Source: Candidatus Campbellbacteria bacterium (GTDB taxonomy: Bacteria; Patescibacteriota; Minisyncoccia; Phycocordibacterales; GCA-2747955). From it: 64,000 nt of DNA. The position numbers and the translations under genes were made by a program. The notes under the pieces are model-generated. The model was not told the DNA's origin, did not search any database, and saw only the letters and a program-made list of their open reading frames with translations. The stretch covers positions 79,425 to 143,424 of the forward strand of contig PDQZ01000008.1 of assembly GCA_002747955.1 (NCBI GenBank). Direction: 5' to 3'. Below, piece after piece: positions 2,686 to 60,421 of this stretch (position 1 is its first letter; each line of letters starts with the position of its first letter).

Positions 2686-2820
2686 TTTATTTTTATCTGA
2701 AAAGATAAATTAAAGGAAGCGCTACCATTGAAACTGATACTAAAATTCCCATAATTATCCATACTGCTTTGATAAATCCTTTTGATTTTTTTCCGTACAT
2801 AATATATTATAATAACATAT

Positions 2821-3123
2821 ATGAAACTAAAAAAAAAGAAGCTATTTATTTTATTCAAAAATTATATTTTTTTGTTTTTAACAATTTTGATTTTAGGTTT
2901 TGTGGCTTATAAATATTTCATATTTAAAAGCGGAACTTTTTACAATTTGACCCAAGAAAAATCAGAAATTGAAACCAAGAAAAAAATGATCGAAGAAGAA
3001 ATACAAATGGTTAAAGAAAAAAAAGAATACTTAAAAACAGAAGATGGAAAAGAAAGAGTCAAAAGGGAAGTAAATCTATACAAAAAACCAGGCGAAAAAG
3101 TTATCAATATTGTTGATTTTTAA
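2821..3123 (+). CDS. septum formation initiator (FtsB/DivIC-like) small membrane protein
   Basis: 100 aa; single N-terminal TM, coiled coil, C-terminal ...EREVNLYKKPGEKVINIV resembling the DivIC/FtsB signature. Confidence 0.4.
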   Translation: MKLKKKKLFILFKNYIFLFLTILILGFVAYKYFIFKSGTFYNLTQEKSEIETKKKMIEEEIQMVKEKKEYLKTEDGKERVKREVNLYKKPGEKVINIVDF

Positions 3124-3195
3124 TTGGTTGATATAAACTATATTTTATTGTATAATATAAAAAATAATTTTACTTAACAAAAAAGGAGAAAATAA

Positions 3196-4047
3196 GTGAA
3201 ACAATACTTAGAAGCTTTAAATCACGTTTTTCAAAACGGAGATGAGCGCGAAGGCAGAAATGGTGTAACCAAATTCTGCACTTGTGTTCAAATGCGATTT
3301 AATCTTAAAGAAGGTTTCCCAGCAGTTACAACCAAGAAACTGCCTTTCAAATCAGTTCTTTCAGAACTTTTGTGGTTCTTGGAAGGAACGGGTGACGAAA
3401 GACGGCTTTGTGAGATACTGCACGGTATTCGCGATGAAAGTAAAAAAACAATATGGACAGCAAACGCGCTTGCTCCATATTGGGAAAAAAGGGGTTTGAA
3501 AAAACATAAGTACGACCTTGGTCGTGTTTATGGAGTTCAATGGAGACATTGGAAAAAATCAGACGGATCAGAGCTTGACCAAATTTCTGATTTAGTTGAA
3601 AAAATTAGAACAGATCCTTTCAACAGACGTTTGATTGTCACTGCCTGGAACCCAGCTGAACTTGATCAAATGGCACTCCCGCCCTGTCACAGAGACTTTC
3701 AAGTTTTTGTTGATTCAAAAGGTGGAATGTCGTTACACATGAATCAACGTTCATGCGATATGTTTTTAGGTGTTCCTTTTAACATTGCTTCGTATGCGTT
3801 ACTTTTACACATGATAGCAAGTGTTACTGGGTATGAAGCAAAAGAGTTGATTTTAACACTCAATGATGCGCATATTTATAAAGCGCATTATGAAGTTGTT
3901 CAAAAACAACTCCAAAGAACGCCACACAAACTTCCAAAGTTATGGATCAACCCAAACATCAATAGCATCGATAGTTTTTCAATGGGGGATTTCAAACTTT
4001 TGAACTATGAAAATGACCAGAGCTTAAAAGCTCCGATGGTTGTTTAA
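3196..4047 (+). CDS. thyA: thymidylate synthase
   Basis: GTG start 8 nt after AGGAG; motifs SELLWFLEGTGDERRL and ALPPCHRDFQVFV. Confidence 0.9.
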   Translation: MKQYLEALNHVFQNGDEREGRNGVTKFCTCVQMRFNLKEGFPAVTTKKLPFKSVLSELLWFLEGTGDERRLCEILHGIRDESKKTIWTANALAPYWEKRGLKKHKYDLGRVYGVQWRHWKKSDGSELDQISDLVEKIRTDPFNRRLIVTAWNPAELDQMALPPCHRDFQVFVDSKGGMSLHMNQRSCDMFLGVPFNIASYALLLHMIASVTGYEAKELILTLNDAHIYKAHYEVVQKQLQRTPHKLPKLWINPNINSIDSFSMGDFKLLNYENDQSLKAPMVV

Positions 4048-4142: not shown

Positions 4143-4172
4143 ATTTTATTTTGTTTTTTTATTTTTCAAATA

Positions 4173-4181
4173 TGATATAAT
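4173..4181 (+). promoter_or_regulatory. extended -10 promoter (TGATATAAT) giving a near-leaderless tyrS transcript
   Basis: TGATATAAT ends 6 nt before ATG 4188; no SD. Confidence 0.5.
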
Positions 4182-4187
4182 TTTTTT

Positions 4188-5464: not shown

Positions 5465-6148
5465 ATGTTTAACTTTAACAAAAAAGAAAAAAAAGAAAGT
5501 CAAAATAATAAAGACAGTCAAAAGTCAACTGATCACATTTTGAGCTTATCAAAAACAATAGAAGCTATTTTATTTTATAAAGCAGAAGAGGTTTCTGTTT
5601 CTTTTTTGGTAAAATTTCTAGGAGTTAAAAAAGAGGAAATTTTAAAAGCGATCGAAAGACTGCAAGAAAACTTAAAATCAAGCCCAATTGGAATTGTTTT
5701 GAATAACAACAAAGCTTTACTTGTAGTTAAAAAAGAATATTCAAACATTATCTCAGAATTAAAAGGAGAAGAAAAATCAGGTGAACTTTCAAACTCAGCC
5801 TTGGAAACTCTAGCTATTGTTTTATACAAAGGACCAATTTCAAAATCAGAAATCGACGAGATTCGTGGAGTAAACTCTTCGTACATTTTAAGAAATCTTT
5901 TGGTTCGAGGACTTGTTGAAAGAAAAATCCAAAACGCAAAAACAGTTTACACTCAAACAATTGACTTGATGAGATTTTTAGGAATTCAAGACAAAAGCGA
6001 ACTGCCAGGTTTTGAAAAGGTAAAAGAAACTCTAAACAAAATCGAAAACACAGATGTTAACGATGTTTTTAATACCAACAATTCAGAAACTTATGAAAAT
6101 GAAGTTGGAAAGAGTGAAAGTGAAAGTGAGGAAAATTTTAACAAATAA
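5465..6148 (+). CDS. scpB: segregation and condensation protein B
   Basis: IEAILFYKAEEVSVSFLVKFLGV...ALETLAIVLYKGPISKSEIDEIRGVNSSYILRNLLVRGLV, tandem winged-helix pattern of ScpB. Confidence 0.7.
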   Translation: MFNFNKKEKKESQNNKDSQKSTDHILSLSKTIEAILFYKAEEVSVSFLVKFLGVKKEEILKAIERLQENLKSSPIGIVLNNNKALLVVKKEYSNIISELKGEEKSGELSNSALETLAIVLYKGPISKSEIDEIRGVNSSYILRNLLVRGLVERKIQNAKTVYTQTIDLMRFLGIQDKSELPGFEKVKETLNKIENTDVNDVFNTNNSETYENEVGKSESESEENFNK

Positions 6149-6162
6149 TTTATAAAAAATTT

Positions 6163-7242
6163 ATGGAAAATTTTATGGACAAAGCAAAAGATTTTTATGA
6201 TGACTACAAAGGAATAATATTTTCTATTTTTTTTGTAATGTTAGGGGCATTTTTAATGTTTTTGTTTTTCAGTTACAAACAAGCTCAAAAAGAACAAGAG
6301 CTTTTGGAAAAACAAAAAGCACAAGCCTTGATTAAACAAAAAATAGAGCAAAAAATAAACTTCAATAAAAATTTACAAAAACAAATCCAAGAAAGCCTAA
6401 ACATTACAGCCGACTCTTACTTAGTAGTTGACTTTGAAACAGAAAAAGAATATTTTTATAAAAACAAAAACAAAAAGCAACCCATTGCTTCTTTAACAAA
6501 AATCGCAACTTCAGTTGTGGCATTAGAAAATTTTCTGCCTGACACTGAAATTCAAATTTCAAAAGAACATTTAAAACAAACAGAAAACAACGGTCTTATT
6601 GCAGGAGAAATTTTTCCCATCAAAAAACTTTTAGCTTTTATGATGATGGTTTCTTCAAACGACGCAGCTTATGCTGTTTCAACATCATACGAAAATAAAA
6701 GAGAAGGTTTTTTAAAAATGATGAATTTGCTTGCAAACAGAATCGGAATGAAATCAACTTTATTTTTCTCAGAATCAGGACTTGATTTAAAAAGAAGCAA
6801 TATTGCAGGTTCGTACTCAACTGTTAAAGACATTTCTCTTTTAGTTAAATATTTTTATCAAAATTTCCCAGAGTTTTCAAAAGAGTTTTCAGTTTCAAAC
6901 GGAAGGTTTTGTTCTAAAAACTTATGTCACAAAACTTACAACACAAACTCACTTTTTGGCACAACAGAGGTTAAAACAATTTTGACTCAAAAACCTCCAT
7001 ATGTAGGCCCAGAAAAAGAACCTGAAATTCAAATTGAAAAAAAACCAAATTTTGATTTTCCAATCTTGTTTTCAAAAACAGGTTACACAAACTTGGCTAA
7101 ACAGTCACTTGCAATTATAACCGAAGTTAAAGACAGGAAAATTATAATTGTAGTTTTAGGAGCAAAAAAAGGACACAGAGCAAACGATGTCAAAATTTTA
7201 ACAAAAGCAGTTGAAAAGTACTTAAAAGAAGAAAAAAAGTAA
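6163..7242 (+). CDS. D-alanyl-D-alanine carboxypeptidase (peptidase S11 / PBP5-like)
   Basis: SxxK (ASLTKI), SxN (VSSNDAA) and KTG (SKTGYT) motifs in order; N-terminal TM. Confidence 0.75.
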   Translation: MENFMDKAKDFYDDYKGIIFSIFFVMLGAFLMFLFFSYKQAQKEQELLEKQKAQALIKQKIEQKINFNKNLQKQIQESLNITADSYLVVDFETEKEYFYKNKNKKQPIASLTKIATSVVALENFLPDTEIQISKEHLKQTENNGLIAGEIFPIKKLLAFMMMVSSNDAAYAVSTSYENKREGFLKMMNLLANRIGMKSTLFFSESGLDLKRSNIAGSYSTVKDISLLVKYFYQNFPEFSKEFSVSNGRFCSKNLCHKTYNTNSLFGTTEVKTILTQKPPYVGPEKEPEIQIEKKPNFDFPILFSKTGYTNLAKQSLAIITEVKDRKIIIVVLGAKKGHRANDVKILTKAVEKYLKEEKK

Positions 7243-7264
7243 TTTATTGTTTTTGTTCTAAAAT

Positions 7265-7273
7265 ATGATATAA
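7265..7273 (+). promoter_or_regulatory. extended -10 promoter (TGATATAAT) for the hydrolase operon, leaderless
   Basis: TATAAT ends 7 nt before ATG 7281. Confidence 0.5.
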
Positions 7274-7280
7274 TTTTTTT

Positions 7281-10200
7281 ATGGATATGGGTCAGAAAAA
7301 ATTCAGAGAAATTTTTTTTAAAAACACTTTTACAAAAAAAGCAGTTGTTTTGACAGCTCTTTTTTTATTTATTTTTTTTGTTAGCACAGGGGTTTTTAGT
7401 AAAGATTTACAAAATCAAAAAGAACAAATAGAAAATATAAAACAAACAAAAAAAATGCAGGTTTTGCCTTCGGCAAAACTTGCCCAACAAGATTTAGAAA
7501 CTCCTTTAGAAAACCAAGAACCAGAAAACTCAACAGAAAAATCAGAAGAACAAAATTCAGAAAATCCAGTTGAGGAAAAACAAGAGGAAAACACACAAAA
7601 CAATCCAGCAACAAAAACACAAGTAGAACAGGAGGCACAAGAGGTAACAAATGAGCAAGAAATTGAAATAACCGTTCAAGAACCTTTAGAACTGAAAGCT
7701 GAAAAAATAGAAGAAAAAGTAGATAAAGAAGAAAAACAAGAAGAGAAAAAAGAAGAAGCAAAAAACCCAACAAAAAATCTTCTTGAAACTTACACCGGTT
7801 TTGGAAAAACCCTAAACATCACAATCCATTCTAAAGTTGGTCAAAACCTAAACTGGAACCAAGCATCTTCATGGGAAGAAGACCGTGTTCCCGAAGATCG
7901 TGATGTAGTATATATTTCCGAAAACTCAAATATTTTTATACCATTAAACACAATAATTAAATCAACAATAATAAACAGAGGAGAAATAGAGTTTGAAGAA
8001 ATACCAATATCTAGCATAGAAGACGAACAAATAAGAATTCTAACAAATTTACAGTGTCAAGATGGTTTTTGTCATTACAAGGCTAAAACAGAAACCAGCA
8101 TTAAAGATGTGTACAATGAAGGTAAAAGTACAGGATACGTAAAATTATATGGTAACGCTTACAACAGTGGTAACTGGAGTGCCTTTTCTGTAATTTATGA
8201 AAATTCAAACAAGACAGACAAAATTATTTTCAACAATAATTTTTTTAATACGGTGAACACAGAAAACTATATTGCTTTTAATAAAAATCAAAAATTTAAC
8301 TTTGATATTTATGGTGCTAAAATAACTCTAAAAAAAGACACTATATTTGAAGGTGCTGTAATAGATACGAGCTTTGGAAACAAAGAAGGAAAAAACAATT
8401 TGAATATTATTTTACAGAAAGGATTTTCTACTCTTACAATAAAAAGTGATGAGACAGTTTCAAACAACTTAATTTTATCTGGCACAAATCAAAATTATAT
8501 ATTCAATAGAATGGATGGTTTTGAAAAGATTACTGTTGAGAAAACAAATATGTTTTCTAAAGTTATGTTTGAAAACATATACTCAAATTTAATAAATCAT
8601 GGGAAAACCTCCCTTAACTTAATGAGTCGTGCATATTTTAGCGGAGATGTCATAAACACGGGTGAGATAAAAATAAACGGAGAAATATTTTTTAAATTAA
8701 AAAATAACAAAAAATTTAAATATTTGATATCGCACAATGAAACTTTAAACCAAGAGGAAAAAGATGAATTAGAACAAAAACAAGAAGTAATACAAACTTC
8801 AAATCTAATTCCTTATTTAGAGAACAAAGATCATTATAATTATATCCATACTTTACAAGAAAACAATTACAAGAGTTTTAAGCTTTTTTCATACAGTGAA
8901 AGTGATGACGAAGGTGAAAACGAAGAGGAAGTCGAAAACGAAGAGGAAACCGAAAACAACCAAGGCAAAGAAGAAAACAATGAAGAAGAACCAGTAGATG
9001 AGCAAGTTGAAAAACCTAAAAAACAAAAAAAGAAAAAAGGTTACAGAAGAAGAGTTGTCAATAATAATGTTAAGAAAAACCAGGAAGAACAAAACATTCA
9101 AGATAGAATCAAAGAGCTTGAAGAAAAAGTTAAAGAATTAAAAGAAAAATTAAAAGAGAAATTGGAAGACGAAGCAGTCAGAGCTGATGAGGGTAAAGGT
9201 GACGAAGAATTTGAGGAAGAAGAAATAGAAGATGAAATAAATTTAATTTCAAAATGTTTAGGTTTGAAATCAAAAGAAAGAGTTCTTTCTAAATGGAACG
9301 ATGACTCAAAGTCAACAAGACAAATTCAAAAATACTTAAACAAAAAAGGTTACAACGCAGGAACTCCTGACGGTATATTTGGAAACAAAACAAAAAATGC
9401 TTTAAAAGATTTTCAAAAAGATAACAGACTAACACCAGACGGAAAGTTTGGAAAACAAACAGTAAGATATATTGATAAACATTGTTACGATGATGTGATA
9501 GAAAACAAAAATGAAATAGAAAAGGAACCCGAAGAAGAGATCGAACAAGCAGAAGAAAAAGAAGAAACGCAAACTTCAAATGAAACAAAAAACGAAAATA
9601 CAGAAAATCCAGTTGAAATAACAGAAAATTCAGAAACCGAAACTCAAACTGAAAATTTAACACAAGAAGAAAGAATAGAAAATTTAAAAGAATTTCTTGA
9701 AAAAGCAAATTCAGAAAAAACAATTCCGCAATGTACAGAGGATGGTGTGGTGAATGAAGAAATTGAAGAAGAAAAAGAAAGAAAGCCGATATCTTTAATT
9801 TTTGAAAGACCAGATAAAACAATTTTAGAAATACCATATACTGAGTTATATGATATTGAGAAAAATGAGTTTAAAGATAATTATGCTTTGATAGAGAGTT
9901 TAGGTTTGAAGTGGAGTTCAACTGGTGGAAATTGTAAAGATAGAAACAATGGTTCATGTACATCTTTAAATGGTGTTAGAATAAATTCTATTTTAGGGGT
10001 AATAGACTTAAATCAGAAGTGTGGTAATTGTGGTGTTAAAATAACTGGTGGAAATGAGGTTGGACATTCTGGAGAAGGTGTTCCAGGATCAATTAGTCAC
10101 TGGAATGGGTGGAAGTTAGACATTGATATTACAAATCTTGAATTAAAAAAATATGTTGAAAAATTAAAGATTGCACAAAAAAAGTATTATTGTGTAGAAA

Positions 10201-10310
10201 ATTTTGAAAATAATTATGGGACAAATTATTGTAACGAGAGAAACCATCATTGGGATGTAATATTTAAAACAAATTATAAATTTAAAGAAATAAAATATGA
10301 AAAAGATTAA
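7281..10310 (+). CDS. giant membrane-anchored cell-wall hydrolase-like protein: acidic low-complexity linkers, PG_binding_1 domain, C-terminal M15/LAS-type zinc-peptidase-like domain
   Basis: N-terminal TM; PG-binding repeat IQKYLNKKGYNAGTPDGIFGNKTKNALKDFQKDNRLTPDGKFG; C-terminus has SISHWNGWKLDIDI (SxHxxGxAxD motif of VanY/M15 peptidases) and a downstream NHHW. Confidence 0.5.
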   Translation: MDMGQKKFREIFFKNTFTKKAVVLTALFLFIFFVSTGVFSKDLQNQKEQIENIKQTKKMQVLPSAKLAQQDLETPLENQEPENSTEKSEEQNSENPVEEKQEENTQNNPATKTQVEQEAQEVTNEQEIEITVQEPLELKAEKIEEKVDKEEKQEEKKEEAKNPTKNLLETYTGFGKTLNITIHSKVGQNLNWNQASSWEEDRVPEDRDVVYISENSNIFIPLNTIIKSTIINRGEIEFEEIPISSIEDEQIRILTNLQCQDGFCHYKAKTETSIKDVYNEGKSTGYVKLYGNAYNSGNWSAFSVIYENSNKTDKIIFNNNFFNTVNTENYIAFNKNQKFNFDIYGAKITLKKDTIFEGAVIDTSFGNKEGKNNLNIILQKGFSTLTIKSDETVSNNLILSGTNQNYIFNRMDGFEKITVEKTNMFSKVMFENIYSNLINHGKTSLNLMSRAYFSGDVINTGEIKINGEIFFKLKNNKKFKYLISHNETLNQEEKDELEQKQEVIQTSNLIPYLENKDHYNYIHTLQENNYKSFKLFSYSESDDEGENEEEVENEEETENNQGKEENNEEEPVDEQVEKPKKQKKKKGYRRRVVNNNVKKNQEEQNIQDRIKELEEKVKELKEKLKEKLEDEAVRADEGKGDEEFEEEEIEDEINLISKCLGLKSKERVLSKWNDDSKSTRQIQKYLNKKGYNAGTPDGIFGNKTKNALKDFQKDNRLTPDGKFGKQTVRYIDKHCYDDVIENKNEIEKEPEEEIEQAEEKEETQTSNETKNENTENPVEITENSETETQTENLTQEERIENLKEFLEKANSEKTIPQCTEDGVVNEEIEEEKERKPISLIFERPDKTILEIPYTELYDIEKNEFKDNYALIESLGLKWSSTGGNCKDRNNGSCTSLNGVRINSILGVIDLNQKCGNCGVKITGGNEVGHSGEGVPGSISHWNGWKLDIDITNLELKKYVEKLKIAQKKYYCVENFENNYGTNYCNERNHHWDVIFKTNYKFKEIKYEKD
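9289..9790 (+). repeat. PG-binding plus acidic-linker cassette, copy 1 (internal to the giant protein)
   Basis: About 90% nt identity to 11710..12200 and partially to 13436..13684. Confidence 0.8.
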
Positions 10311-11082
10311 AATAATAATAATGTGTTTTGCAACGATGTTGTTTTTACAAAGCAATGTTTTTTCAGAGAATGTTAATTTTAAAATAAAGTTAACAGAATT
10401 AGAGGGAAATGAAAAAGTTGATAATGTGGAATTTAAAAAAGAAGGTAGGGGTAAGATTTTTGTTGATGGAAACTTAATATTTAATGGAATGACAAATAAA
10501 CAGTTAGATCCTTTAAGACAGGTTTCTTTTAAAAAAATTGGAAGTGGAATATATTTTTTCGTTTGTTCGGAAGTTTGTGATGAGTTTATTTATTTTAACA
10601 AAAAAATACATAAAATAGATACTAATGTTAAATGGTACGGAGCGAATTACATAAAAGAAGTAGGTGGAAATATATTTTTTGCAACAATGTTGGATGATGT
10701 ATTCTCAGTTTTTGTATTTGATAAGGAAAAAGAAAAACAAGTTGGGGGTAGATCATTTATCCTTAAAGATGAGTTTAACGACTTTGAAGTTATAGACAAT
10801 AACTTAATCATTAAAAATGATAATAAAATTGTAAAAAAGGTTAGTTTAGATTCTTTTAGTGAGAGGAGTCTTTATAATGATAATAAAATTCGCACAGACA
10901 AGTTATTGAAAGAAGAAAAAAAGTTGGAAGAGGAAAAAGAGAAAGAGAAAGATGTTAAAAGTGATGAAGTAATCGAAAAATCAGAAAAAATATCAAATAA
11001 TAATCTAATCGTTGTTTCTACATTAGCAATTTTGATTTTATTTGTGATTTCACTATTTGTGATAAAAAGAAATAAAATATGA
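10297..11082 (+). CDS. hypothetical secreted protein with C-terminal TM anchor
   Basis: signal-peptide-like N-terminus MKKIKIIIMCFATMLFLQSNVFS; C-terminal LIVVSTLAILILFVISLFVI; overlaps the upstream gene by 14 nt. Confidence 0.4.
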   Translation: MKKIKIIIMCFATMLFLQSNVFSENVNFKIKLTELEGNEKVDNVEFKKEGRGKIFVDGNLIFNGMTNKQLDPLRQVSFKKIGSGIYFFVCSEVCDEFIYFNKKIHKIDTNVKWYGANYIKEVGGNIFFATMLDDVFSVFVFDKEKEKQVGGRSFILKDEFNDFEVIDNNLIIKNDNKIVKKVSLDSFSERSLYNDNKIRTDKLLKEEKKLEEEKEKEKDVKSDEVIEKSEKISNNNLIVVSTLAILILFVISLFVIKRNKI

Positions 11083-11669
11083 AGAAAAAAATAATACAAT
11101 TAATTATACTATTTTTTATAATAATAATTATCATTATAGTAGTAACAAAAAGTCAAAAAACCAATATAACAAATCAAGATAATATCATACAAGAAAGCGA
11201 TAAAAATTTTTGGAGTAAGAATAATTGTTTTAGACCTGTGCCAGAAAGTTTTGTTATAAAAAATAAATTTTTAAAAGATTATAGTGTTTCTTTAAATAAA
11301 GAAAAGGGTTATTTGTTAGAAAAATTTGTTCTAAATGATAAAAAATTTGAAGTAATACAATATGGCTGCAATTCTTTTATAATTAAATTTTTAGTTCCAA
11401 TTGATGAAAGTCAAGTTGTAAAAGAAATTAACAATAATTTTTTGCATTTCGTTGTTGATGAATTGGATGAAGTGAAAAAAGTTTATAAAGATGATTTTAT
11501 AAAAATAATATCTAATATTTTATTGGAAAAAAAAGATTTGGTGAAATTTAATCACGTGGTCTATTCTACTTGTGGTGGTGAATTGTGTAATAACTATATA
11601 GTTTTGTCCGAAATAAAAAAAATAGGTAATGAGTATTATGTGCCAGTTAAATTTGTTCAAGACTATTAA
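11079..11669 (+). CDS. hypothetical N-terminally anchored protein
   Basis: ATGA overlap with the upstream stop; N-terminal TM IIQLIILFFIIIIIIIVV; Cys-containing soluble domain. Confidence 0.4.
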   Translation: MKKKIIQLIILFFIIIIIIIVVTKSQKTNITNQDNIIQESDKNFWSKNNCFRPVPESFVIKNKFLKDYSVSLNKEKGYLLEKFVLNDKKFEVIQYGCNSFIIKFLVPIDESQVVKEINNNFLHFVVDELDEVKKVYKDDFIKIISNILLEKKDLVKFNHVVYSTCGGELCNNYIVLSEIKKIGNEYYVPVKFVQDY

Positions 11670-11702
11670 AAATTAAGAAATTTAAGTTCAAAACTAAATC
11701 TT

Positions 11703-12923
11703 TTGAAAAAAGGTTCAAAAGACAAAAAAGCAATCAAGCAACTTCAAAAATACTTAAACAAAAAAGGTTACAAAGCAGGTTATGCTGATGGAATATTTGG
11801 AAACAAAACAAAAAATGCTTTAAAAGATTTTCAAAAAGATAATAACTTAAAAGTTGATGGAAAGTTTGGAAGACAAACTGCAAGATATATTGATAAACAT
11901 TGTTACGATGATGTGATAGAAAGCAAAAATGAGATAGAAAAGGAAGCAGAAGAAGAGATTGAACAGGTGGAAGAGAAAGAAGAAACACAAACTTCAAACG
12001 AAACAGAAAACGAAAATACAGAAAATCCAGTTGAAACGACAGAGGATTCAGAAATTGAAACTCAAACTGAAAACCTAACACAAGAAGAAAGAGTAGAAAA
12101 TTTAAAAGAATTTCTTGAAAAAGCAAATTCAGAAAAAACAATTCCGCAATGTACGGAAGACGGAATTATTAATGAAGAGATTGAGGAAGAGGAAGCAGTT
12201 GTAGAGGAATTATTGACACAAGAAATTTTAAAACAAGCATTTGGCTTAAATGTAGATAAAGAGATTGTTGATAAATTTAATGAACTAATGCCTTTATACG
12301 AAATAGATAATAAATATAGAATTTCACATTTTTTAAGTCAGTTGGCGCATGAGTCAGGTATTAGAAATATTCCAGAACATCATAATTATAGCAAGACAAG
12401 ATTATTAAGACAATTTGGGTGCGGATATAAAACAGTGAATGGTAAAAGAATAAAACAGTGGGACAAGAGAAAAAAAACATGCAAACCAGGTTATAAAAAA
12501 AGAGTAAATACATTATGGAAAAATCCTGAAAAATATGTAAACAGCCCTAATTTGTTTAATTTAGTATATAGCAAGATAATAGGTAATGGAAGTGTTGAGA
12601 GTGGGGATGGGTTTAGGTATAGGGGGAGAGGTATAATTCAATTAACTGGAAAAGCAAATTATCGAAATTTTACAAAATATTATCAAAGAAAAACTGGAAA
12701 AAAAGTTGATTTTGTAAAAAATCCTGATTTGGTATTAGTTCCTGAATATTCTGTTTCATCAGCCTTTTGGTATTGGCATTCAAGAGGTGTTAATAAATAT
12801 GCTGTGGATGATAGGGAGGAAACTATTGTAGTTGTTACTAAAAAAGTAAATGGTGGAACTAACGGTTTAGAAGATAGAAAAAATAAATTTTATAAAATAT
12901 ATAATTTAATTAAAGATAAATAA
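11703..12923 (+). CDS. GH19-family lysozyme/chitinase-like peptidoglycan hydrolase with N-terminal PG_binding_1 domain and acidic linker
   Basis: TTG start; PG-binding module; C-terminal FLSQLAHESG and YRGRGIIQLTGKANYRNF...SAFWYWH match the GH19 signature (SHETG / GRGPIQL / AFWFWM). Confidence 0.65.
   Translation: MKKGSKDKKAIKQLQKYLNKKGYKAGYADGIFGNKTKNALKDFQKDNNLKVDGKFGRQTARYIDKHCYDDVIESKNEIEKEAEEEIEQVEEKEETQTSNETENENTENPVETTEDSEIETQTENLTQEERVENLKEFLEKANSEKTIPQCTEDGIINEEIEEEEAVVEELLTQEILKQAFGLNVDKEIVDKFNELMPLYEIDNKYRISHFLSQLAHESGIRNIPEHHNYSKTRLLRQFGCGYKTVNGKRIKQWDKRKKTCKPGYKKRVNTLWKNPEKYVNSPNLFNLVYSKIIGNGSVESGDGFRYRGRGIIQLTGKANYRNFTKYYQRKTGKKVDFVKNPDLVLVPEYSVSSAFWYWHSRGVNKYAVDDREETIVVVTKKVNGGTNGLEDRKNKFYKIYNLIKDK
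11710..12200 (+). repeat. PG-binding plus acidic-linker cassette, copy 2
   Basis: Near-identical to 9289..9790. Confidence 0.8.
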
Positions 12924-12928
12924 AAGAT

Positions 12929-13426
12929 ATGAAAAAATATATAACAATATTAATCACTATAATATTAATGGTATTATTAATTTGGTTTTTAAGTAAAGAA
13001 TATTATAAGCATGCAAGAGAAAATGATATAGGAAATAATATTATTATAGAACAAGATGAGTATGAAAAAGATAAAAGCATTTTTTTACATCATGAGGGCA
13101 AGAAGATAAAAATACATGATTTGAAACCAAAATACACTGTTCCAGAAAATTACATTGACCACTTTACCTATAAAACAAAAGATAATAAACAATATATTGT
13201 GTTGGTAGTAAGTTGGGAGGCAAAAGATGAAGAAGGATTTGTTGATAAAGATAATACAATATACATTTATGATTTAGAAGGAAAGAATGTTAATAAAGAT
13301 GAAAAATATGTTTGGTTTGGAAAATGGTTTGGCGAGAATGACGATCAAACGGTGATGTATGAAAAAAAAGATAGAAAATACATTATCGATGAGATGAAAA
13401 AACTTGAACTAGAAAATAAAATTTAA
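12929..13426 (+). CDS. hypothetical N-terminally anchored protein
   Basis: N-terminal TM ITILITIILMVLLIWFL; TAA stop at 13424-13426. Confidence 0.4.
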   Translation: MKKYITILITIILMVLLIWFLSKEYYKHARENDIGNNIIIEQDEYEKDKSIFLHHEGKKIKIHDLKPKYTVPENYIDHFTYKTKDNKQYIVLVVSWEAKDEEGFVDKDNTIYIYDLEGKNVNKDEKYVWFGKWFGENDDQTVMYEKKDRKYIIDEMKKLELENKI

Positions 13427-13684
13427 AAAAGAAAAGGTTCAAAAGACAAAACATCAATCAAACAACTTCAAAAATACTTAAACAAAAAAGGTTACAACGC
13501 AGGTTATCCTGACGGTATATTTGGAAACAAAACAAAAAGTGCTTTAAAAGATTTTCAAAAAGACAACAGTCTAACAGTTGACGGAAAGTTTGGGAAACAA
13601 ACAGTAAGATATATTGATAAACATTGTTACGATGATGTGATAGAAAACAAAAATGAAATAGAAAAGGAAAAACAAAAAACATAA
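13427..13684 (+). pseudogene. orphan PG_binding_1 cassette fragment (copy 3), in-frame with 12929..13426 across a single TAA
   Basis: Encodes KGSKDKTSIKQLQKYLNKKGYNAGYPDGIFGNKTKSALKDFQKDNSLTVDGKFGKQTVRYIDKHCYDDVIENKNEIEKE; no start codon; the stop of the upstream ORF lies immediately in-frame before it. Confidence 0.5.
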
Positions 13685-13747
13685 AAAACATTTAGCAGGA
13701 AAACAAATTTAATAGTTTGTTTTTCTTTTTTGTGTTAAAATGATTTT

Positions 13748-15285: not shown

Positions 15286-15313
15286 GATCAAAAAATGATA
15301 TAATGTTTTTATT

Positions 15314-16949: not shown

Positions 16950-19900
16950 ATGACTGAAAATAAAAATACAGATGATCAAAAAGATTATGATAAACTTTAT
17001 CCAAAAACACCTACTGTTTTAGATGAAAACGAGATTTTAGATTTTTGGAATCAAAATAAAATTTTTGAAAAATCAATAGAACAAAACAAAGAAAAAGAAC
17101 AATTTGTTTTTTACGATGGTCCGCCATTTGCAACAGGAACTCCGCACTACGGACACATTGTTCCTGGAACCATCAAAGACGTTTTCCCAAGATACAAATC
17201 AATGAAAGGGTATTATGTAAAAAGGCAATGGGGTTGGGACTGTCACGGAATGCCTATTGAAAACATTGTTGAAAAAAAACACAACCTAAATTCAAAAAAA
17301 GATATTGAAGAATTTGGAATCGAAAACTTCACAAAATCAGCCGCAGAATCTATTTTCACTTACAAAGATGTTTGGGAAGAAACAATCCCAAAAACAGGAC
17401 GATGGGCCGACATGACAAAACCGTATTTAACAATGTCGCCCGACTATATCGAGTCTGTTTGGTGGGCTTTTAAAGAGCTTTACGACAAAGGACTTGTCAC
17501 AAAAGATTTCAAAGCAATGCACATTTGTCCGCGTTGTGAAACAACACTTTCAAACAGAGACGTTTCAGAAGGATACAAAGATATCAAAGACCTATCTTTG
17601 ATTGCAAAATTCAAACTTGAAGACCAAAAAAACACTTTTGTTTTAGCTTGGACAACAACTCCTTGGACACTTCCAGGAAACGTGGCTTTGGCTGTGGGTT
17701 CAGATATTGATTATGTAAAAGTAAAAGACGCAGAAACTGAAGAATTTTTCATTTTTGCCAAAAACAAAAAAGAAGAATTAGAACAAAAATCTCAGAAAAC
17801 TTTTGAAGTGATCGAAGAGTTAAAAGGAAGCGATTTGATTGGACAAAAATACGTTCCACTTTTTGATTACTACGCAAAGAACAAAGATTTAAAAAACCAA
17901 GAAAACGGTTGGTTAATTTACGATGCAGATTTTGTAACAACAGAAGACGGAACAGGGATTGTTCATATTGCGCCTGCTTTCGGTGAAGACGATATGGAGC
18001 TTGGAAGACAACAAAGCCTGCCATTTGTTCAACATGTTGGAATGAACGGAAAATTCAACAAAGAAGTAACAGACTTTGCTGGTTTGAAAGTTCGAAAAAC
18101 AGACTTTCACGAAGAAGCCGATATTGAAATTATCAAATTTTTAGCAGGCAAAGGAGCACTATTTCACAAAGAAAAATACGAACACTCATATCCACACTGT
18201 TGGAGATGTAAAACTCCACTTTTAAACTATGCAGCATCGTCTTGGTTTGTAGATGTGCCACAAGTTAGAGAACAACTTGCCGAAGAAAACAAAAAAGTAG
18301 GTTGGGTTCCAGAATACGTTGGACAAAAACGTTTCCAAAACTGGCTTGAAACTGCCAGACCTTGGGCTGTTTCTCGTTCTCGATATTGGGGTTCACCAAT
18401 TCCAATTTGGCAAAACACAGAAGATCAAAACGATTTTAAAGTTATTGGTTCTTTAGAAGAGTTAAAAAACTATACACGAGGAACAAACAACTTTTTTGCT
18501 ATAAGACACGGACAATCAAAAGCAAATGTCAATGACAATTTATCATCAGAAATCGGAAAACACGGAGACGAGTTAACCGAAGAAGGTAAAAAACAAGTTT
18601 TAGAAAGAGCAAAAGAACTAAAAGAAACTGATTTTATTCAAAAAAATTCACAAGTTCAAAATTCAGACAAAATTGACATTATCATCTCATCTCCATTTGT
18701 AAGAACAAAACAATCAGCCGAAATCATCGCAGAGGAACTTGGAATTTCAAAAGATTACATTGTATATGACGAAAGAATTCAAGAAAGAGATTTTGGAAGT
18801 GCTACTGGAAAACCAAATCCGCTTTTTGACAAATGGATTGAAAATGAAGCCAAAACAGAAAACCATAAATTTGAAGGAGGTGAAAGTCACGCTGATATTG
18901 TTAAAAGAACAATGGAATTTTTGTTTGAAATTAATCAAAAATATGAAGGTAAAAATATTTTGCTTGTCACTCACTTTACACCAACTTATGTTATGGTTGC
19001 AACTTCTTTGGGTTATAACATGGAAAGAGCAAGAAAAATGCTAACACAAGAATGGAAAACAGTTCAAAACTCACAAGTTTATCCAATAAATTTTGCTCCA
19101 TATCCACACGACCAAAATTTCAAATTAGATTATCACAGACCGTATATTGATGATGTAAAATTTGTTCACGACGGTAAAAACTATGAAGTTATAACAGATG
19201 TTTTTGACACCTGGTTTGACTCAGGTTCAATGCCTTACGCTTCAAGACATTATCCTTTTGAAAACACAGATTTATTTAATCCAGAAAAAGACTTATCATA
19301 CCCGGCTGACTTTATCTCAGAAGGACTTGATCAAACTCGTGGATGGTTTTACGTTCTGATGGTTTTGGGATATATTTTGTTTGGAAAATCTCCATACAAA
19401 AATGTAGTTGTCCACGGAATGCTAATGGCCGAAGACGGAAAGAAAATGTCAAAATCTTTGCAAAACTATCCTCCAATGGAAAAAGTTTTGAACATTTATG
19501 GAGCTGATGCTTTAAGATTGTTTTTGTTAACATCTTCAATTGTAAAAGGAGATTCTCCCGGATTTTCTGAAAAAGGAGTAGACGAAATTTTGAAAAAAGT
19601 TATCATGAAGTCAAAAAACATCTTATCTTTTTACAACCTTTACAAAAACGAAGTTTCAAATAAAGAACTTGACTACAAAAAATCTCCAAATGTTTTAGAC
19701 AAATGGATTGTTAAAAAAACAGAAAATTTGGTTCAAAAAGTTACAGATGGTTTAGAATCATACAAGCTTGATGAAGCTTCAAGAGAATTTGTTTCGTTCA
19801 TTGACGACTTTTCAACTTGGTATATCAGAAGATCAAGAGACAGATACAAAGGACAAAATCAAGAAGATAAAGACTTTGCAATTTTAACAACCAAAGAAGT

Positions 19901-20618
19901 TTTGAAAACTTTTGCTAAAACAATTTCTCCATTTGCTCCATTTTTGTCAGAAGTTTTGTGGAAAGATTTGAAAAGCAACGACGACAAAATCTCTGTTTGT
20001 TTGGAATCTTGGCCTGAAATAAAAAAGAACTTAAAAGACAAAATCGTTTCAAACAAACATATTTTGGAGCAAATGCAAATGGTCCGAGACATCGTTTCAT
20101 TTGGTCTTGAAGCAAGATCAGAGGCAGGAATAAAAGTTCGACAACCTTTGCAAAAAGCACTTGCGGTAGGAGATTTTTCAGAAATTTCTAAAAATGAACA
20201 ATTTGTAGAAATTATCAAAGATGAGTTAAATGTAAAAGAACTTGTTTTTGCAGAAAACCTAGATGAGGTTCAGGAAAAATACAAAGAATTTGAAAACAAG
20301 GCTTTGGAAAACAAAGAAAGTGACAATGAAATTTTTGTATTTTTAGATACAGTTCTAAATGACGAACTTAAAGAAGAGGGAAATTTCAGAGAGTTTTTGA
20401 GACTTGTTCAAACCTTAAGAAAGAAAGAAGGTTTGCAAGTTAAAGATGAAATTGAACTTAAAATTGACGTTGACCAAAACTCAAAAGACTTTATTGAAAA
20501 AAATAAAGAAGAGCTAAAAAACACAGCGGGAGTAAAAAATATAAATTATTCTGAAATTCCAACAGGGGAAAGTGTAAAAATCAACGATATTGAACTTAAA
20601 GTAATTTTAATTAAATAA
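16950..20618 (+). CDS. ileS: isoleucyl-tRNA synthetase (type 2) with an inserted histidine-phosphatase (phosphoglycerate-mutase-like) domain
   Basis: HIGH (PHYGHIV), KMSKS, WCISRQ-like SRSRYWGSPIPIW; 1222 aa; insertion of about 200 aa with RHGQS, SSPFVRTKQSAEI, GGESHADIVKR and LLVTHF motifs. Confidence 0.9.
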   Translation: MTENKNTDDQKDYDKLYPKTPTVLDENEILDFWNQNKIFEKSIEQNKEKEQFVFYDGPPFATGTPHYGHIVPGTIKDVFPRYKSMKGYYVKRQWGWDCHGMPIENIVEKKHNLNSKKDIEEFGIENFTKSAAESIFTYKDVWEETIPKTGRWADMTKPYLTMSPDYIESVWWAFKELYDKGLVTKDFKAMHICPRCETTLSNRDVSEGYKDIKDLSLIAKFKLEDQKNTFVLAWTTTPWTLPGNVALAVGSDIDYVKVKDAETEEFFIFAKNKKEELEQKSQKTFEVIEELKGSDLIGQKYVPLFDYYAKNKDLKNQENGWLIYDADFVTTEDGTGIVHIAPAFGEDDMELGRQQSLPFVQHVGMNGKFNKEVTDFAGLKVRKTDFHEEADIEIIKFLAGKGALFHKEKYEHSYPHCWRCKTPLLNYAASSWFVDVPQVREQLAEENKKVGWVPEYVGQKRFQNWLETARPWAVSRSRYWGSPIPIWQNTEDQNDFKVIGSLEELKNYTRGTNNFFAIRHGQSKANVNDNLSSEIGKHGDELTEEGKKQVLERAKELKETDFIQKNSQVQNSDKIDIIISSPFVRTKQSAEIIAEELGISKDYIVYDERIQERDFGSATGKPNPLFDKWIENEAKTENHKFEGGESHADIVKRTMEFLFEINQKYEGKNILLVTHFTPTYVMVATSLGYNMERARKMLTQEWKTVQNSQVYPINFAPYPHDQNFKLDYHRPYIDDVKFVHDGKNYEVITDVFDTWFDSGSMPYASRHYPFENTDLFNPEKDLSYPADFISEGLDQTRGWFYVLMVLGYILFGKSPYKNVVVHGMLMAEDGKKMSKSLQNYPPMEKVLNIYGADALRLFLLTSSIVKGDSPGFSEKGVDEILKKVIMKSKNILSFYNLYKNEVSNKELDYKKSPNVLDKWIVKKTENLVQKVTDGLESYKLDEASREFVSFIDDFSTWYIRRSRDRYKGQNQEDKDFAILTTKEVLKTFAKTISPFAPFLSEVLWKDLKSNDDKISVCLESWPEIKKNLKDKIVSNKHILEQMQMVRDIVSFGLEARSEAGIKVRQPLQKALAVGDFSEISKNEQFVEIIKDELNVKELVFAENLDEVQEKYKEFENKALENKESDNEIFVFLDTVLNDELKEEGNFREFLRLVQTLRKKEGLQVKDEIELKIDVDQNSKDFIEKNKEELKNTAGVKNINYSEIPTGESVKINDIELKVILIK

Positions 20619-23807: not shown

Positions 23808-24233
23808 ATGAAAAAAATTTTAGTTATGTTGCTAACTTTTTTGTTTTGTAAATTTGTATTTGCAAGCGAGGTGACTTGTCTTGCGGATACAATTTACAAT
23901 GAGGCTCGTAGCGAACCTCTTATTGGTCAAAAAGCAGTTGCAGCTGTTGTTTTCAATCGTATAAAAAGTAAAAGCGCTATTTACAAAGAAAACACAGTTT
24001 GTGCCACTGTAAAGAAAAAAGCGCAGTTTGCTTCTGGCAAGCCTGCGAAAAAAGGATTTGAAAGAGAAAAATACTATAAAATAAGAAGAAATTCTTTGAA
24101 ATGGTATTATGAGTTTGTTAACAAAAAATTTGTTGATCCAACTTATGGCTCTTTACTTTTTGCTTCACGTGGATACATTCACAAAGGCAAGAAAAAAACA
24201 GTAAAAATTGGTGGTCACCAATTTTTTAAGTAA
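23808..24233 (+). CDS. SleB-like cell wall hydrolase (Hydrolase_2 family), secreted
   Basis: signal peptide, then CLADTIYNEARSEPLIGQKAVAAVVFNRIKS...TVCATV...QF matching the SleB/Hydrolase_2 domain; GGAGG SD. Confidence 0.65.
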   Translation: MKKILVMLLTFLFCKFVFASEVTCLADTIYNEARSEPLIGQKAVAAVVFNRIKSKSAIYKENTVCATVKKKAQFASGKPAKKGFEREKYYKIRRNSLKWYYEFVNKKFVDPTYGSLLFASRGYIHKGKKKTVKIGGHQFFK

Positions 24234-28074: not shown

Positions 28075-28393
28075 AAAATTTCTTTTTTCTTGACAAAAAA
28101 AAGAAAAAAACCAACACGCTGATAAACGCAAACCAAAATTAGCGTACTCGGAAATACTTTAAATCAAGACTTCAAATTTCTTGCTTGTCGAGCACTCAAT
28201 ATGCTTGAACAGTAAAAAATTAACTGTCGTCTCCACACAAAAACAAAAATCATACGGTTTTTGTTTTTGATTTTTTATAAAAAATACTATGAATTGACGA
28301 AAATCTTTTTAGCAACCCTTAAAAAATAGATAATCATCGATATTTTTAATTTAATATATTTTTATTTAATTGAAATTTTGATATAATAAGTTT

Positions 28394-29569: not shown

Positions 29570-30496
29570 ATGTTGACAAGAAACAATTCAAGGCAGCTGG
29601 CTTTACAGACAATGTTTGTTTTAGATACAAGATTTTTTGGTTTGGATTATCAAGAAAACCAAAATCTAGACACTGACAAAATCAGTGAGGTTTACTCTTA
29701 TGTTTTTGAAAATTTTTATAAAGATAAATCAAGTGGTGAGGATGAATTTTCTAAAAATTTAATTTTTGGAGTTGTCAAAAATCTAGAAGAAATTGATCAA
29801 TATATTCAAAAATTTGCTAAAAATTGGTCACTTGAAAAAACTGCGATTGTTGATAAAAATATTTTAAGAATTGCTATTTATGAGCTTTTGTTTTTTGAAA
29901 GTGAGTTACCAGGGAAAGTGGTAATCAACGAGGCTATTGAACTTGCTAAAAAATATGGACATAAAAAATCTCATTTATTTATTTCAGGACTTTTAGGTGC
30001 TTTATATGAGAACATGGGTTTGGAGAAAAAAGACCAGAAGTTGAATAGTTTACCCAAAAAAATTACCGAAAAGAAAAAAGTGGGTGCTTTGTGTTTTTAT
30101 AAAAAAGAAGGAAAAATTAAATATCTTTTAGTTCATAATATTTTTGGAAAATGGACACTACCTAAAGGTTCTGTTGAACAAGATTTTGACAACATAAACG
30201 ACGCTTTAAATTCAATTTTGAAAAGTAAAGTAAATGTTGAAGGAAAAGCAGGTGATATTATTGGTAAGAATGAATACAGTTCTTTAAAAGATGTTAGAAA
30301 TATTGTTAAAAAAGACATTGTTTATTTTATTTTTGAAGTTTCAAATCCAGGTGAAACTGAAGTGAAACAGAAAAATGGAGGTTTAAATAACGTAAAATGG
30401 TTTACTGAGGAAAATTTAAAAAAAGCTCAAACTTACGAAGATTTAGAAGAAATTATTCAAAAAGGAGTGGAATTAATTAAAAAACAAAATGTCTAA
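29570..30496 (+). CDS. nusB: NusB-like antitermination factor fused to a C-terminal Nudix-like domain
   Basis: N-terminal RQLALQTMFVLDTRFF...LEKTAIVDKNILRIAIYEL matches NusB; C-terminal VGALCFYKKEGKIKYLLVHNIFGKWTLPKGSVE resembles the Nudix fold but lacks REx2EE. Confidence 0.55.
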   Translation: MLTRNNSRQLALQTMFVLDTRFFGLDYQENQNLDTDKISEVYSYVFENFYKDKSSGEDEFSKNLIFGVVKNLEEIDQYIQKFAKNWSLEKTAIVDKNILRIAIYELLFFESELPGKVVINEAIELAKKYGHKKSHLFISGLLGALYENMGLEKKDQKLNSLPKKITEKKKVGALCFYKKEGKIKYLLVHNIFGKWTLPKGSVEQDFDNINDALNSILKSKVNVEGKAGDIIGKNEYSSLKDVRNIVKKDIVYFIFEVSNPGETEVKQKNGGLNNVKWFTEENLKKAQTYEDLEEIIQKGVELIKKQNV

Positions 30497-32492: not shown

Positions 32493-32532
32493 AAATTTGA
32501 TTATCTTTAATCAAATATGTTATAATTACCGA

Positions 32533-34311: not shown

Positions 34312-34316
34312 AAAAT

Positions 34317-35012
34317 ATGAAAAAAAATAGTTTAGAAATTATAAATTTAGAACACATAGAAAAAGAATATTTTTTAAGTCAAACTCAGTCTTTTAAAGCC
34401 TTAAGAGATATTACTTTAAAAATCAATAAAGGAGAATTTGTTGCTATTGTAGGAAGTTCTGGTTCTGGGAAATCAACTTTAATGAATATTATTGGTTTTT
34501 TAGATATTCCAACAGCGGGTGAGTATGAATACAAAGGTATTAAATTTGATGAATTATCTGAAGATGAGTTAACAGAATTAAGGTCAAAAGAAATTGGTTT
34601 TATCTTTCAATCTTTTCACTTGCTTCCATCTAAGACTGTTTTTGAAAATGTAAAATTGCCACTTGTTTATTCAGGTGTTGTGAATACAAAAAAACAATAT
34701 GAAGAATATGTAACTTCAGCTTTGGAAAAATCAGATTTAGACAAAAGTTTATGGTATAAGAAACCAAACCAGCTTTCTGGTGGTCAAAGACAAAGAGTGG
34801 CAATTGCAAGAGCCCTTGTAAACAAACCTGAGGTTTTGCTTGCAGATGAGCCTACTGGAAACTTGGACTCAAAAACTGGGCAAAAAGTTTTAGAAGAGTT
34901 AAAACAACTCAATCGAGAAGAAAATGTAACCGTGATTATGATTACTCACGACAAAAATATTGCCAAAAATGCAGATAGAGTCATCACCGTTAAAGACGGA
35001 ATTATTATATAA
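34317..35012 (+). CDS. ABC transporter ATP-binding protein (MacB/LolD-type)
   Basis: Walker A GSSGSGKST, signature LSGGQRQRVAIARAL, Walker B LLADEPTGNLD. Confidence 0.85.
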   Translation: MKKNSLEIINLEHIEKEYFLSQTQSFKALRDITLKINKGEFVAIVGSSGSGKSTLMNIIGFLDIPTAGEYEYKGIKFDELSEDELTELRSKEIGFIFQSFHLLPSKTVFENVKLPLVYSGVVNTKKQYEEYVTSALEKSDLDKSLWYKKPNQLSGGQRQRVAIARALVNKPEVLLADEPTGNLDSKTGQKVLEELKQLNREENVTVIMITHDKNIAKNADRVITVKDGIII

Positions 35013-35016
35013 AATT

Positions 35017-60361: not shown

Positions 60362-60421
60362 ATTTTTTCTTTTAACTTTTAGGGAAATGTTTTTGGGGGA
60401 AAATATGATATAATATTTCAT

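Follow-up and report, generated by a model that had tools for sequence, protein, structure and literature searches.

What is encoded where a single peptidoglycan-binding cassette precedes first a predicted zinc peptidase, then a lysozyme, and finally no enzyme at all, with small membrane-anchored proteins placed in between? The array in question lies in a 64,000-nucleotide (nt) stretch of contig PDQZ01000008.1 from a Candidatus Campbellbacteria bacterium (assembly GCA_002747955.1, positions 79,425 to 143,424 of the forward strand), the whole of which is referred to below as the window and numbered from its first letter. Calling of open reading frames (ORFs) returned the five frames that an earlier, sequence-only reading had listed, namely 7281–10310 (1009 amino acids, aa), 10297–11082, 11079–11669, 11703–12923, and 12929–13426, all on the + strand. 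The three small ORFs are designated P2, P3, and P5, the three cassette copies A, B, and C, and the C-terminal domains of the giant protein and of the fourth ORF CT1 and CT2, respectively. The sequence-only reading took the array for an operon in which modular hydrolases are each encoded by a full gene. From the comparisons set out here we consider it on balance probable that effector and immunity genes with orphan modules make up a polymorphic locus comparable to those of CdiA, Rhs, and WapA, which would arm a bacterium of the candidate phyla radiation (CPR) with envelope-degrading enzymes.

Except for a small number of Saccharibacteria in culture, the interaction of CPR/Patescibacteria with other cells is little understood, above all in uncultured members. 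Epibiotic growth of 'Ca. Southlakia epibionticum' strain ML1, a patescibacterial epibiont in culture, is reported to depend on homologues of peptidase and lysozyme encoded beside virB4, which were found essential for it (cited in PMC12102498). The locus would be a concrete candidate for a weapon with which Paceibacteria degrade the envelopes of hosts or competitors, complete with a diversification mechanism and candidate self-protection.

Cassette Copies and Abrupt Switches to Unrelated C-terminal Domains

Three matches to PG_binding_1 (PF01471) were found in the array, at aa 678–729 of the giant protein (E = 1.7e-18, 67.0 bits), at aa 9–61 of the fourth ORF (E = 1.3e-18, 67.3 bits), and in copy C (E = 2.1e-19, 69.9 bits), where the gathering cut-off is 23. 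Copy A (9315–9776, + strand), with which the full-length gene has its region of homology ahead of the C-terminal domain, consists of PG_binding_1 followed by an acidic linker rich in E, T, and N, and copy B (11683–12194, + strand), delimited by its homology to the related locus L081 described below, forms the 5′ part of a first orphan module. Positions 9315–9776 and 11733–12194 are 87.7% identical over 462 nt; the repeat is real, the figure of about 90% first put on it being slightly high. Copy C (13427–13684, + strand), recognized from its translation, from Pfam, and from 93.9% identity to L081 positions 1305–1500, is the terminal repeat of the array. It had been predicted as a third orphan copy and is one, with 13432–13672 approximately 90% identical to A and B and the PG_binding part alone retained. 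No further copies of the cassette are present within the 64-kb window.

The homology between copies stops abruptly where the unrelated CT1 and CT2 begin. Two different hydrolase domains, an LAS-type peptidase and a GH19 lysozyme, are found behind one PG_binding_1/acidic-linker cassette, as the sequence-only reading had it, and each block of C-terminal domain and small genes is bracketed by direct cassette repeats. The longest exact runs between copies measure 61 nt (A and B) and 75 nt (A and C), and runs of 61–75 nt are long enough for RecA-type recombination. The cassette has evidently recombined, as the sequence-only reading proposed; actual switching between its copies may be inferred.

Repeats of this kind invite the explanation that their structure or order is an artefact of assembly, the more so as short-read contigs break in each cassette copy and the order of the segments hangs on the repeat resolution of the assembler. 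Assembly was checked with two Logan contigs from SRR6011893, which are 100% identical to window positions 9707–11724 and 12125–13488 and terminate within the repeats; the dacA-like and tatD genes of the flanks likewise lie on contigs that end in cassette copies. Each unique junction nonetheless recurs with 100% identity, differences between the copies affect ∼10–18% of positions with exact runs of no more than 75 nt, which ordinary reads should phase, and copy B stays like L081 without a break from the unique sequence on its left as far as 12013 at least. A repeat of this type is moreover present independently in L081. An artefact is accordingly very improbable.

A Second Locus of the Same Design Carries Other Enzymes

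A metagenome scan recovered a related locus, PDWI01000679.1 (L081). Its first gene encodes a homologue of the N-terminal domain (N-domain) of the giant protein, a charged/coiled-coil region, the same PG_binding cassette, and an unrelated C-terminal domain that contains Cys and His residues and has no matches; a 225-aa transmembrane (TM) protein follows. The second unit of L081 repeats 589 nt of gene 1 (a low-complexity region and the cassette) at 90.8% identity and ends in a pancreatic-lipase/PLA1-like domain (PDB 1w52, E = 2.9e-4) with a GHSLG nucleophile elbow, after which come a TM protein of 216 aa and more small ORFs. Compared with the window, the N-domain is 38–40% identical at the aa level and the cassette 75–94% at the nt level, and the C-terminal domains, namely LAS, GH19, lipase-like, and one without matches, bear no relation to one another. 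A conserved N-terminal or central region that gives way abruptly to C-terminal domains of different kinds, as in polymorphic toxins, is therefore found at two loci, and the enzymes of both, an LAS peptidase, a GH19 lysozyme, and a lipase-like protein, are all envelope-degrading effector types.

Over one and the same 196-nt core, pairwise identities are 81.6% for A and B, 86.7% for A and C, and 90.3% for B and C; the two L081 copies (L081a and L081b) are 91.3% identical to each other, and L081a is 90.3% identical to B and 93.9% identical to C. The copies are thus not grouped by genome, the pair C and L081a standing above the pair A and B, and the flanking N-domains of the window and L081 are so far apart as to be undetectable by blastn. 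Cassettes that do not cluster by genome beside N-domains that have diverged point to an exchange of modules between lineages.

The remaining weak PG_binding matches of the metagenome scan, L087 among them, have unrelated architectures and were set aside. The array of small TM proteins in L081 (1–9200) includes two paralogues, at 5672–6322 and 7158–7799.

The Giant Protein and Its LAS/Hedgehog-like C-terminal Domain

The full-length gene (7281–10310), defined by its ORF, TM segment, composition, and N-domain homology with L081, encodes in order a TM anchor (aa 16–41), an acidic linker, the N-domain (aa ∼170–535), a charged/coiled-coil region, PG_binding_1, an acidic linker, and the LAS-type domain. 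The hydrophobic segment at aa 16–41 is the only one at its N terminus, and with it the protein has the features of the large exported component, trafficking signal included, of a polymorphic toxin system. It points to Sec-dependent insertion into the membrane, and the N-domain, conserved in the lineage, is possibly an adhesin.

The C terminus of the giant protein gave no usable match in Pfam, NCBIfam, PHROG, a phmmer search of the PDB, or a word-indexed protein search, and a single-sequence AlphaFold2 model reached a predicted local distance difference test score of only 33. An exhaustive HMMER search with CT1 (9885–10268, + strand) returned 560 cluster representatives at E ≤ 1e-3 (clusters at 50% identity), unnamed throughout, for instance as "hypothetical protein" in Streptomyces and Microtetraspora, and present also in CPR metagenomes. 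In an alignment of 32 diverse members, Glu66, His69, His80, Asp87, and His130 are invariant and Glu126, Trp131, Asp132, and three Cys residues nearly so, giving the family motif TGGTExGH ... SHxNGyKxD ... ExxHWD, which in CT1 itself reads TGGxExGH, SHWNGWKLD, and ExxHHWD. The zinc-ligand pattern H-x(3–6)-D ... H with a catalytic acid can be read from this alignment as His80-x6-Asp87, Glu126-x2/3-His130, and Glu66/His69. A profile search of the PDB with the family gave weak matches (E ∼0.3), all of them Hedgehog N-domains, with His80 and Asp87 aligned to His141 and Asp148 of Shh; hhalign, run with the family on the sequence of Shh-N, aligned the local motif alone, at a probability of 7%.

The characteristic fold of the LAS/Hedgehog-DD-peptidase superfamily is recognizable in CT1. 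This fold (MEROPS M15 and relatives) comprises Shh-N, VanX, MepA, VanY, LdcB, and phage L-Ala-D-Glu peptidases, and the Hedgehog/DD-peptidase group as a whole has been reviewed (PMC6027127). Unlike these known members, the CT1 family has three nearly invariant Cys residues and an invariant TGGTExGH of its own. The Pfam M15 models (VanY, Peptidase_M15_3/4) did not match the giant protein at E ≤ 0.1 or the 32 family members at E ≤ 1, HH_signal matched neither the giant protein nor the 32 members, and the Ca-binding acidic residues of Shh are largely replaced, the corresponding stretch being TGGNEVGHS. Of the M15/LAS-like zinc peptidase first proposed, the LAS type therefore stands, by fold and motif, and membership of the Pfam M15 families does not. 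We conclude that CT1 is a separate, new, unannotated family of the LAS/Hedgehog-DD-peptidase fold, nearest in fold to the Hedgehog N-domain, and its predicted function is very probably that of a zinc peptidoglycan peptidase.

Elsewhere in the family the domain is joined to T4SS_pilin and SLT, to T4SS_pilin alone, or to subtilase and PG_binding_1. In Paceibacteria relatives, the LAS/Hedgehog-like domain is found C-terminal to T4SS_pilin (VirB2-like), sometimes together with SLT, in a conserved pilin cluster beside yidC-rnpA-dnaA; such fusions were seen at L015 (1031–1921), L062 (861–1745), L073 (1409–2335), L028, P0032, P0121, L094, and L095. A VirB1-like wall-cutting function has been reported missing from many type IV secretion system (T4SS) clusters of Patescibacteria (PMC12102498). 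The pilin-fused domain may provide this function, and the large and unannotated family may supply the wall-cutting partner not found in many of these pilin clusters.

The GH19 Unit Is Probably a 5′-Truncated Module

CT2 (12195–12923, + strand) is a GH19-type lysozyme domain, as had been proposed, although it scores just under the Pfam cut-off (23.7 bits against 25.5). It matches the PHROG endolysin family phrog_181 (E = 1.2e-57) and, in the PDB, 8xcl (E = 5.9e-28 over 230 residues) and the phage endolysins 4ok7 (E = 4.2e-22) and 9ms7. The first of these is the C-terminal lysozyme of TseP, an Aeromonas effector of a type VI secretion system (T6SS) with the catalytic dyad Glu654/Glu663 (PMC11893102). 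The Glu-x8-Glu dyad of CT2 is intact (AHESGIRNIPE) and aligns with that of TseP, and on these alignments the family assignment is solid.

The start of the ORF is a different matter. Across all 406 aa of ORF 11703–12923 there is no signal peptide, TM segment, or any hydrophobic segment, and the only possible start codon is TTG 11703, inside the cassette homology. Copy B is homologous to internal coding sequence of L081 from ∼11683, which is ∼14 nt past the P3 stop codon and 20 nt 5′ of TTG 11703. From this point there is one mismatch in 43 nt, and 11681–11903 as a whole is 91% identical to L081 1278–1500. In L081, TTG 11703 corresponds to an internal codon, the second Leu of "...PLSSKLNLLKKGSKDK". 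Because the homology extends upstream of TTG 11703, the apparent start of the GH19 ORF would be an accident of a truncated cassette, and the ORF probably falls short of a complete gene. Copy C lacks any ATG, GTG, or TTG start; it comprises an intact PG_binding_1 frame of 85 codons with no C-terminal domain. Both are probably orphan modules, without an N terminus, export signal, or credible start of their own, behind one full-length gene. Several complete hydrolases, each exported by itself, are thus probably not what the locus encodes. Truncated downstream orphans that keep the pre-C-terminal homology, as at polymorphic toxin loci, are represented by copies B and C and by L081 gene 2.

The closest alternative, which we hold to be unlikely, retains an operon of complete, separately expressed modular hydrolases that would remodel the producer's own wall and/or attack that of a host, the small proteins being chaperones, regulators, or immunity proteins and the cassette a mark of past shuffling only. 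All reading frames are intact, including the GH19 catalytic residues and the complete PG_binding_1 of copy C, the genes lie close together in a single transcription unit bounded by a promoter and a terminator, and TTG 11703 could act as a start codon. Such an operon would possibly work by use of TTG 11703 plus some route of export. It has to contend, however, with the missing export signal of the GH19 ORF, the internal cassette Leu codon that TTG 11703 represents with homology continuing 5′ of it, the lack of any start codon in copy C, and the second unit of L081, which is N-terminally truncated too.

The position of the two orphans suggests another alternative, in which P3 with the GH19 ORF, and P5 with the last PG_binding domain, once were or still are single anchored proteins, split by recent pseudogenization or joined by programmed read-through or suppression of TAA. 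P3 and the GH19 ORF share a frame and are separated by one TAA (11667–11669) and 11 sense codons (to 11702), and P5 and copy C share a frame across one TAA (13424–13426) with no spacer, an arrangement of both pairs whose chance was estimated at ∼0.04. The fusion products would be coherent membrane-anchored proteins, in which the signal-less GH19 and PG_binding domains would gain an N-terminal anchor, and both TAA codons are confirmed in the independent assembly. TAA is the least leaky stop codon, however, and here it is the normal and dominant one, used by 40 of 48 window ORFs. At the analogous junction of L081, the small gene (2754–3431) and the next unit (3442 onward) are out of frame, and the counterpart there of the stretch from the P3 stop to the cassette is cassette-derived coding sequence in a different upstream protein context. 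Split or read-through genes are for these reasons improbable, and the orphan modules of an effector/immunity locus remain the preferred account of the truncated starts.

Three Small Membrane-anchored Proteins Are Candidate Immunity Proteins

P2 (10297–11082, + strand; 261 aa) has a signal-peptide-like N terminus, an extracytoplasmic domain, and a C-terminal TM anchor; P3 (11079–11669, + strand; 196 aa) has an N-terminal TM anchor and a four-Cys domain; and P5 (12929–13426, + strand; 165 aa) has an N-terminal TM anchor and a small domain. That these are three unrelated small anchored proteins with tightly coupled genes was correctly seen before, with the qualification that the anchor of P2 is at its C terminus. 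The giant gene and P2 overlap by 14 nt, P2 and P3 by 4 nt (ATGA), and the GH19 ORF and P5 are 5 nt apart. Despite encoding unrelated proteins, all three genes start with ATG in a common, near-identical initiation region, AAAGAAATAAAATATGAA... (10284–10322, 11066–11104, and 12910–12935).

No homologues of P2, P3, or P5 were found at E ≤ 0.01 among 5.8 billion protein clusters, and none of the three belongs to a Pfam, PHROG, NCBIfam, or PADLOC family. Their GC contents of 0.249, 0.213, and 0.245, respectively, compare with 0.29–0.33 in the surroundings, and this combination of low GC and absent homologues is typical of fast-evolving immunity genes. A membrane anchor with an extracytoplasmic domain is also the topology that protection of the producer's own envelope would require. 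P2 and P3 are reasonable immunity candidates for CT1, either of them possibly an accessory protein instead, and P5 is a reasonable immunity candidate for CT2.

Comparison with Known Effector and Lysis Systems

Loci of the cdi and rhs type comprise a full-length exported protein with a conserved pre-C-terminal region and a variable effector, an adjacent immunity gene, and downstream 5′-truncated pairs able to recombine in; loci of contact-dependent inhibition (CDI) and Rhs loci are defined by orphan modules with homology to the upstream gene (PMC4927057). The window resembles CdiA-CT/CdiI and Rhs-CT/RhsI in having one exported full-length protein with a variable tip, a small gene next to it, and truncated modules in the same orientation. 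It differs in having no CdiB/TPS domain, FHA repeats, VENN motif, RHS/YD repeats, or PAAR domain, in a handle made of PG_binding_1 and an acidic linker, in effectors that are envelope hydrolases and not nucleases, in immunity candidates that are membrane-anchored, and in its bearer, a monoderm-like CPR bacterium.

Among monoderms, WapA is the nearest functional analogue, being Sec-exported and wall-associated with a polymorphic C terminus. WapA of Bacillus subtilis and its Gram-positive kin are exported by Sec, associate with the wall through a binding module, end in an effector that is polymorphic, and have an immunity gene downstream (PMC5566331, PMC12704120). The giant protein differs from it by its TM anchor and PG_binding_1 and by C-terminal domains that would act on the envelope from outside. 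WapA itself has CWB2 as well as YD repeats, and what it delivers into the cytoplasm of its target is a tRNase.

The alignment of the GH19 domain with TseP-C over 230 residues includes, besides the dyad, the family-specific insertion, and the repertoire of peptidase, lysozyme, and (in L081) lipase mirrors the Tae, Tge, and Tle effector classes of T6SS. TseP has a cognate immunity protein, TsiP (PMC11893102). P5 showed no similarity to any known protein in the homologue search, in which TsiP was not specifically compared. Unlike T6SS effectors, the locus has no T6SS genes at hand, and delivery would presumably be by surface display. The LAS-like domain invites a comparison with the VirB1-like two-domain SLT+CHAP hydrolases of monoderm T4SS and with the T4SS pilin clusters of Patescibacteria (PMC12102498); other CPR genomes fuse such a domain to T4SS_pilin, sometimes with SLT. 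In contrast to those pilin clusters, it here tips a 1009-aa anchored protein with no T4SS gene linked.

The sequence-only reading had drawn its analogy with the shuffling of phage endolysins, and modular endolysins with PG_binding_1 and GH19 (phrog_181) do share the domains, their order, and an evolution by domain shuffling. The corresponding explanation of the array, a remnant prophage lysis cassette of endolysins with holin- or spanin-like small membrane proteins, can appeal to this common architecture and to the matches with PHROG endolysin families. The window GH19 unit is, unlike those endolysins, chromosomal, without a holin, with a long acidic linker, 5′-truncated, and placed behind the gene of a giant surface protein. 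Phage structural, integrase, or regulatory genes are missing from the flanks, where only tyrS, scpB, dacA-like, tatD, and rnhA are found; the small proteins, at 165–261 aa with large extracytoplasmic domains, are unlike holins and have no PHROG matches; PADLOC returned no matches; and the top phage match of the GH19 domain reaches just 40% identity, over the catalytic domain alone. With no holin or spanin genes, no phage context, and a cassette not found in viral contigs, the phage lysis cassette was rejected as improbable in the extreme. Polymorphic toxin loci fit better than endolysin shuffling as the analogy.

A Model for the Locus and Points That Weigh Against It

The comparisons show the architecture, the identities of the domains, the truncated borders of the orphans, and a second locus built alike with other enzymes; the model goes beyond these. 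The full-length gene would give rise to a Sec-inserted, membrane-anchored surface protein with an exchangeable C-terminal enzyme, at present a predicted LAS/Hedgehog-fold zinc peptidase that would cut peptidoglycan peptides. The PG_binding_1/linker cassette would double as a wall-binding module and as the homology region through which enzyme and immunity modules are swapped. P2 and P3 would be the candidate immunity genes of the current tip. They are followed by an orphan module, made of the truncated cassette, the GH19 lysozyme, and P5, which would stay silent, and by the cassette remnant of copy C, which closes the array. The tip would be swapped or deleted when cassette copies recombine, whether inside the genome or with DNA of other Paceibacteria, and protection of the producer's own wall would fall to the small membrane-anchored proteins, the target of the enzymes presumably being the envelope of a host or competitor.

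We propose more tentatively, and as the less probable claim, that Paceibacteria own a Sec-dependent polymorphic effector system in which the highly conserved PG_binding_1 cassette flanks mobile blocks of hydrolase and membrane-anchored immunity genes and serves as a universal recombination handle through which distant lineages would trade tips such as LAS peptidase, GH19 lysozyme, and lipase, the giant protein breaching the envelopes of hosts or competitors, with the unannotated LAS/Hedgehog-like peptidase family as a by-product of the analysis. If the cassette is truly a cross-lineage handle, it would be usable as a search key for effector-immunity pairs across CPR metagenomes.

Several points weigh against an effector/immunity locus. 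Apart from Sec, no machinery for secretion or delivery is evident, and peptidoglycan hydrolases anchored in the membrane of the producer could do no more than remodel the wall of that same cell. Searches of the giant protein against Pfam, NCBIfam, and PHROG found PG_binding families and a sub-threshold G8 match only, with no RHS/YD, TPS/FHA, LXG, PAAR, or MafB-N domains. CT1 is followed by two small genes, where one is the usual arrangement, and the immunity role of P2, P3, and P5 is purely one that we infer. The in-frame position of both orphans behind the preceding small ORF, across one TAA each, is not predicted by the orphan model, and the GH19 ORF could be translated from TTG 11703. The unique junctions are reproducible, but how the segments are ordered across the three repeats is taken from the original assembly. 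Finally, the design is seen in two loci only, the window and L081, and the source organism in one sample only (SRR6011893), with no recombinant or strain variant observed.

Transcription Unit and Genome Context

An extended −10-like promoter element, TGATATAAT (7266–7274, + strand), can be read from the sequence 6 nt 5′ of the giant-gene ATG, which suggests that the mRNA is leaderless or has a very short leader. An AT-rich hairpin with a 13-bp stem, followed by a T-run (13697–13732, + strand; predicted RNA fold −14.9 kcal/mol, z = −3.2), has the appearance of a terminator. With a promoter before the giant gene and this hairpin after copy C, 7281 to ∼13732 would form one transcription unit, apart from the DD-carboxypeptidase gene upstream. 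A scan for σ70 and terminator consensus sequences was uninformative in the AT-rich DNA of the window.

The organism had been called CPR-like, and comparison of tyrosyl-tRNA synthetase (TyrRS) confirms it as CPR/Patescibacteria, the best identity being 64% to proteins in metagenome-assembled genomes of Patescibacteria, mostly of the Paceibacteria, Nomurabacteria, and Zambryskibacteria type. The genetic code is table 11. The flanking genes are housekeeping genes (tyrS, scpB, dacA-like, tatD, rnhA, an AI-2E transporter, tmRNA, and ileS), and the operon is kept beside tyrS in none of the 80 tyrS-anchored genome loci of relatives that were compared. The S11 DD-carboxypeptidase (6163–7242; Pfam E = 1.5e-31) and the SleB-like protein (23808–24233; Hydrolase_2, E = 1.1e-12) noted earlier are both there; the further claim that lytic functions are unusually enriched goes beyond them, enrichment not having been demonstrated. 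The SleB-like gene is unlinked to the effector locus and probably a housekeeping gene; like the DD-carboxypeptidase gene it is an ordinary neighbour with a promoter of its own, and the two give no evidence for an arsenal.

Extended −10 elements of the TGATATAAT type stand ∼6–8 nt 5′ of the ATG of several genes in the window (4170–4187, 7266–7274, 15296–15313, 28376–28393, and 60404–60421). Their closeness to the ATG suggests that leaderless or near-leaderless mRNAs are widespread, and a GGAG-type Shine-Dalgarno sequence is present in only some of the window genes. Two ORFs have unusual domain arrangements: an isoleucyl-tRNA synthetase-like ORF (16950–20618, 1222 aa) has a His_Phos_1 insert at aa 517–697 (E = 1.7e-24) between the two halves of its catalytic domain, and a 308-aa ORF (29570–30496) is a NusB protein fused to a NUDIX hydrolase domain. 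An HlyD/MacB-type exporter is encoded at 32497–36207 and PilM at 42689–43786. Large surface-type ORFs are also found at 43971–45749, 47290–50367, and 52485–55262; among them are one with collagen-like repeats in a GC-richer stretch (0.39), a 1025-aa ORF without a Pfam match, and a 925-aa protein containing DUF11 and PhoD_N.

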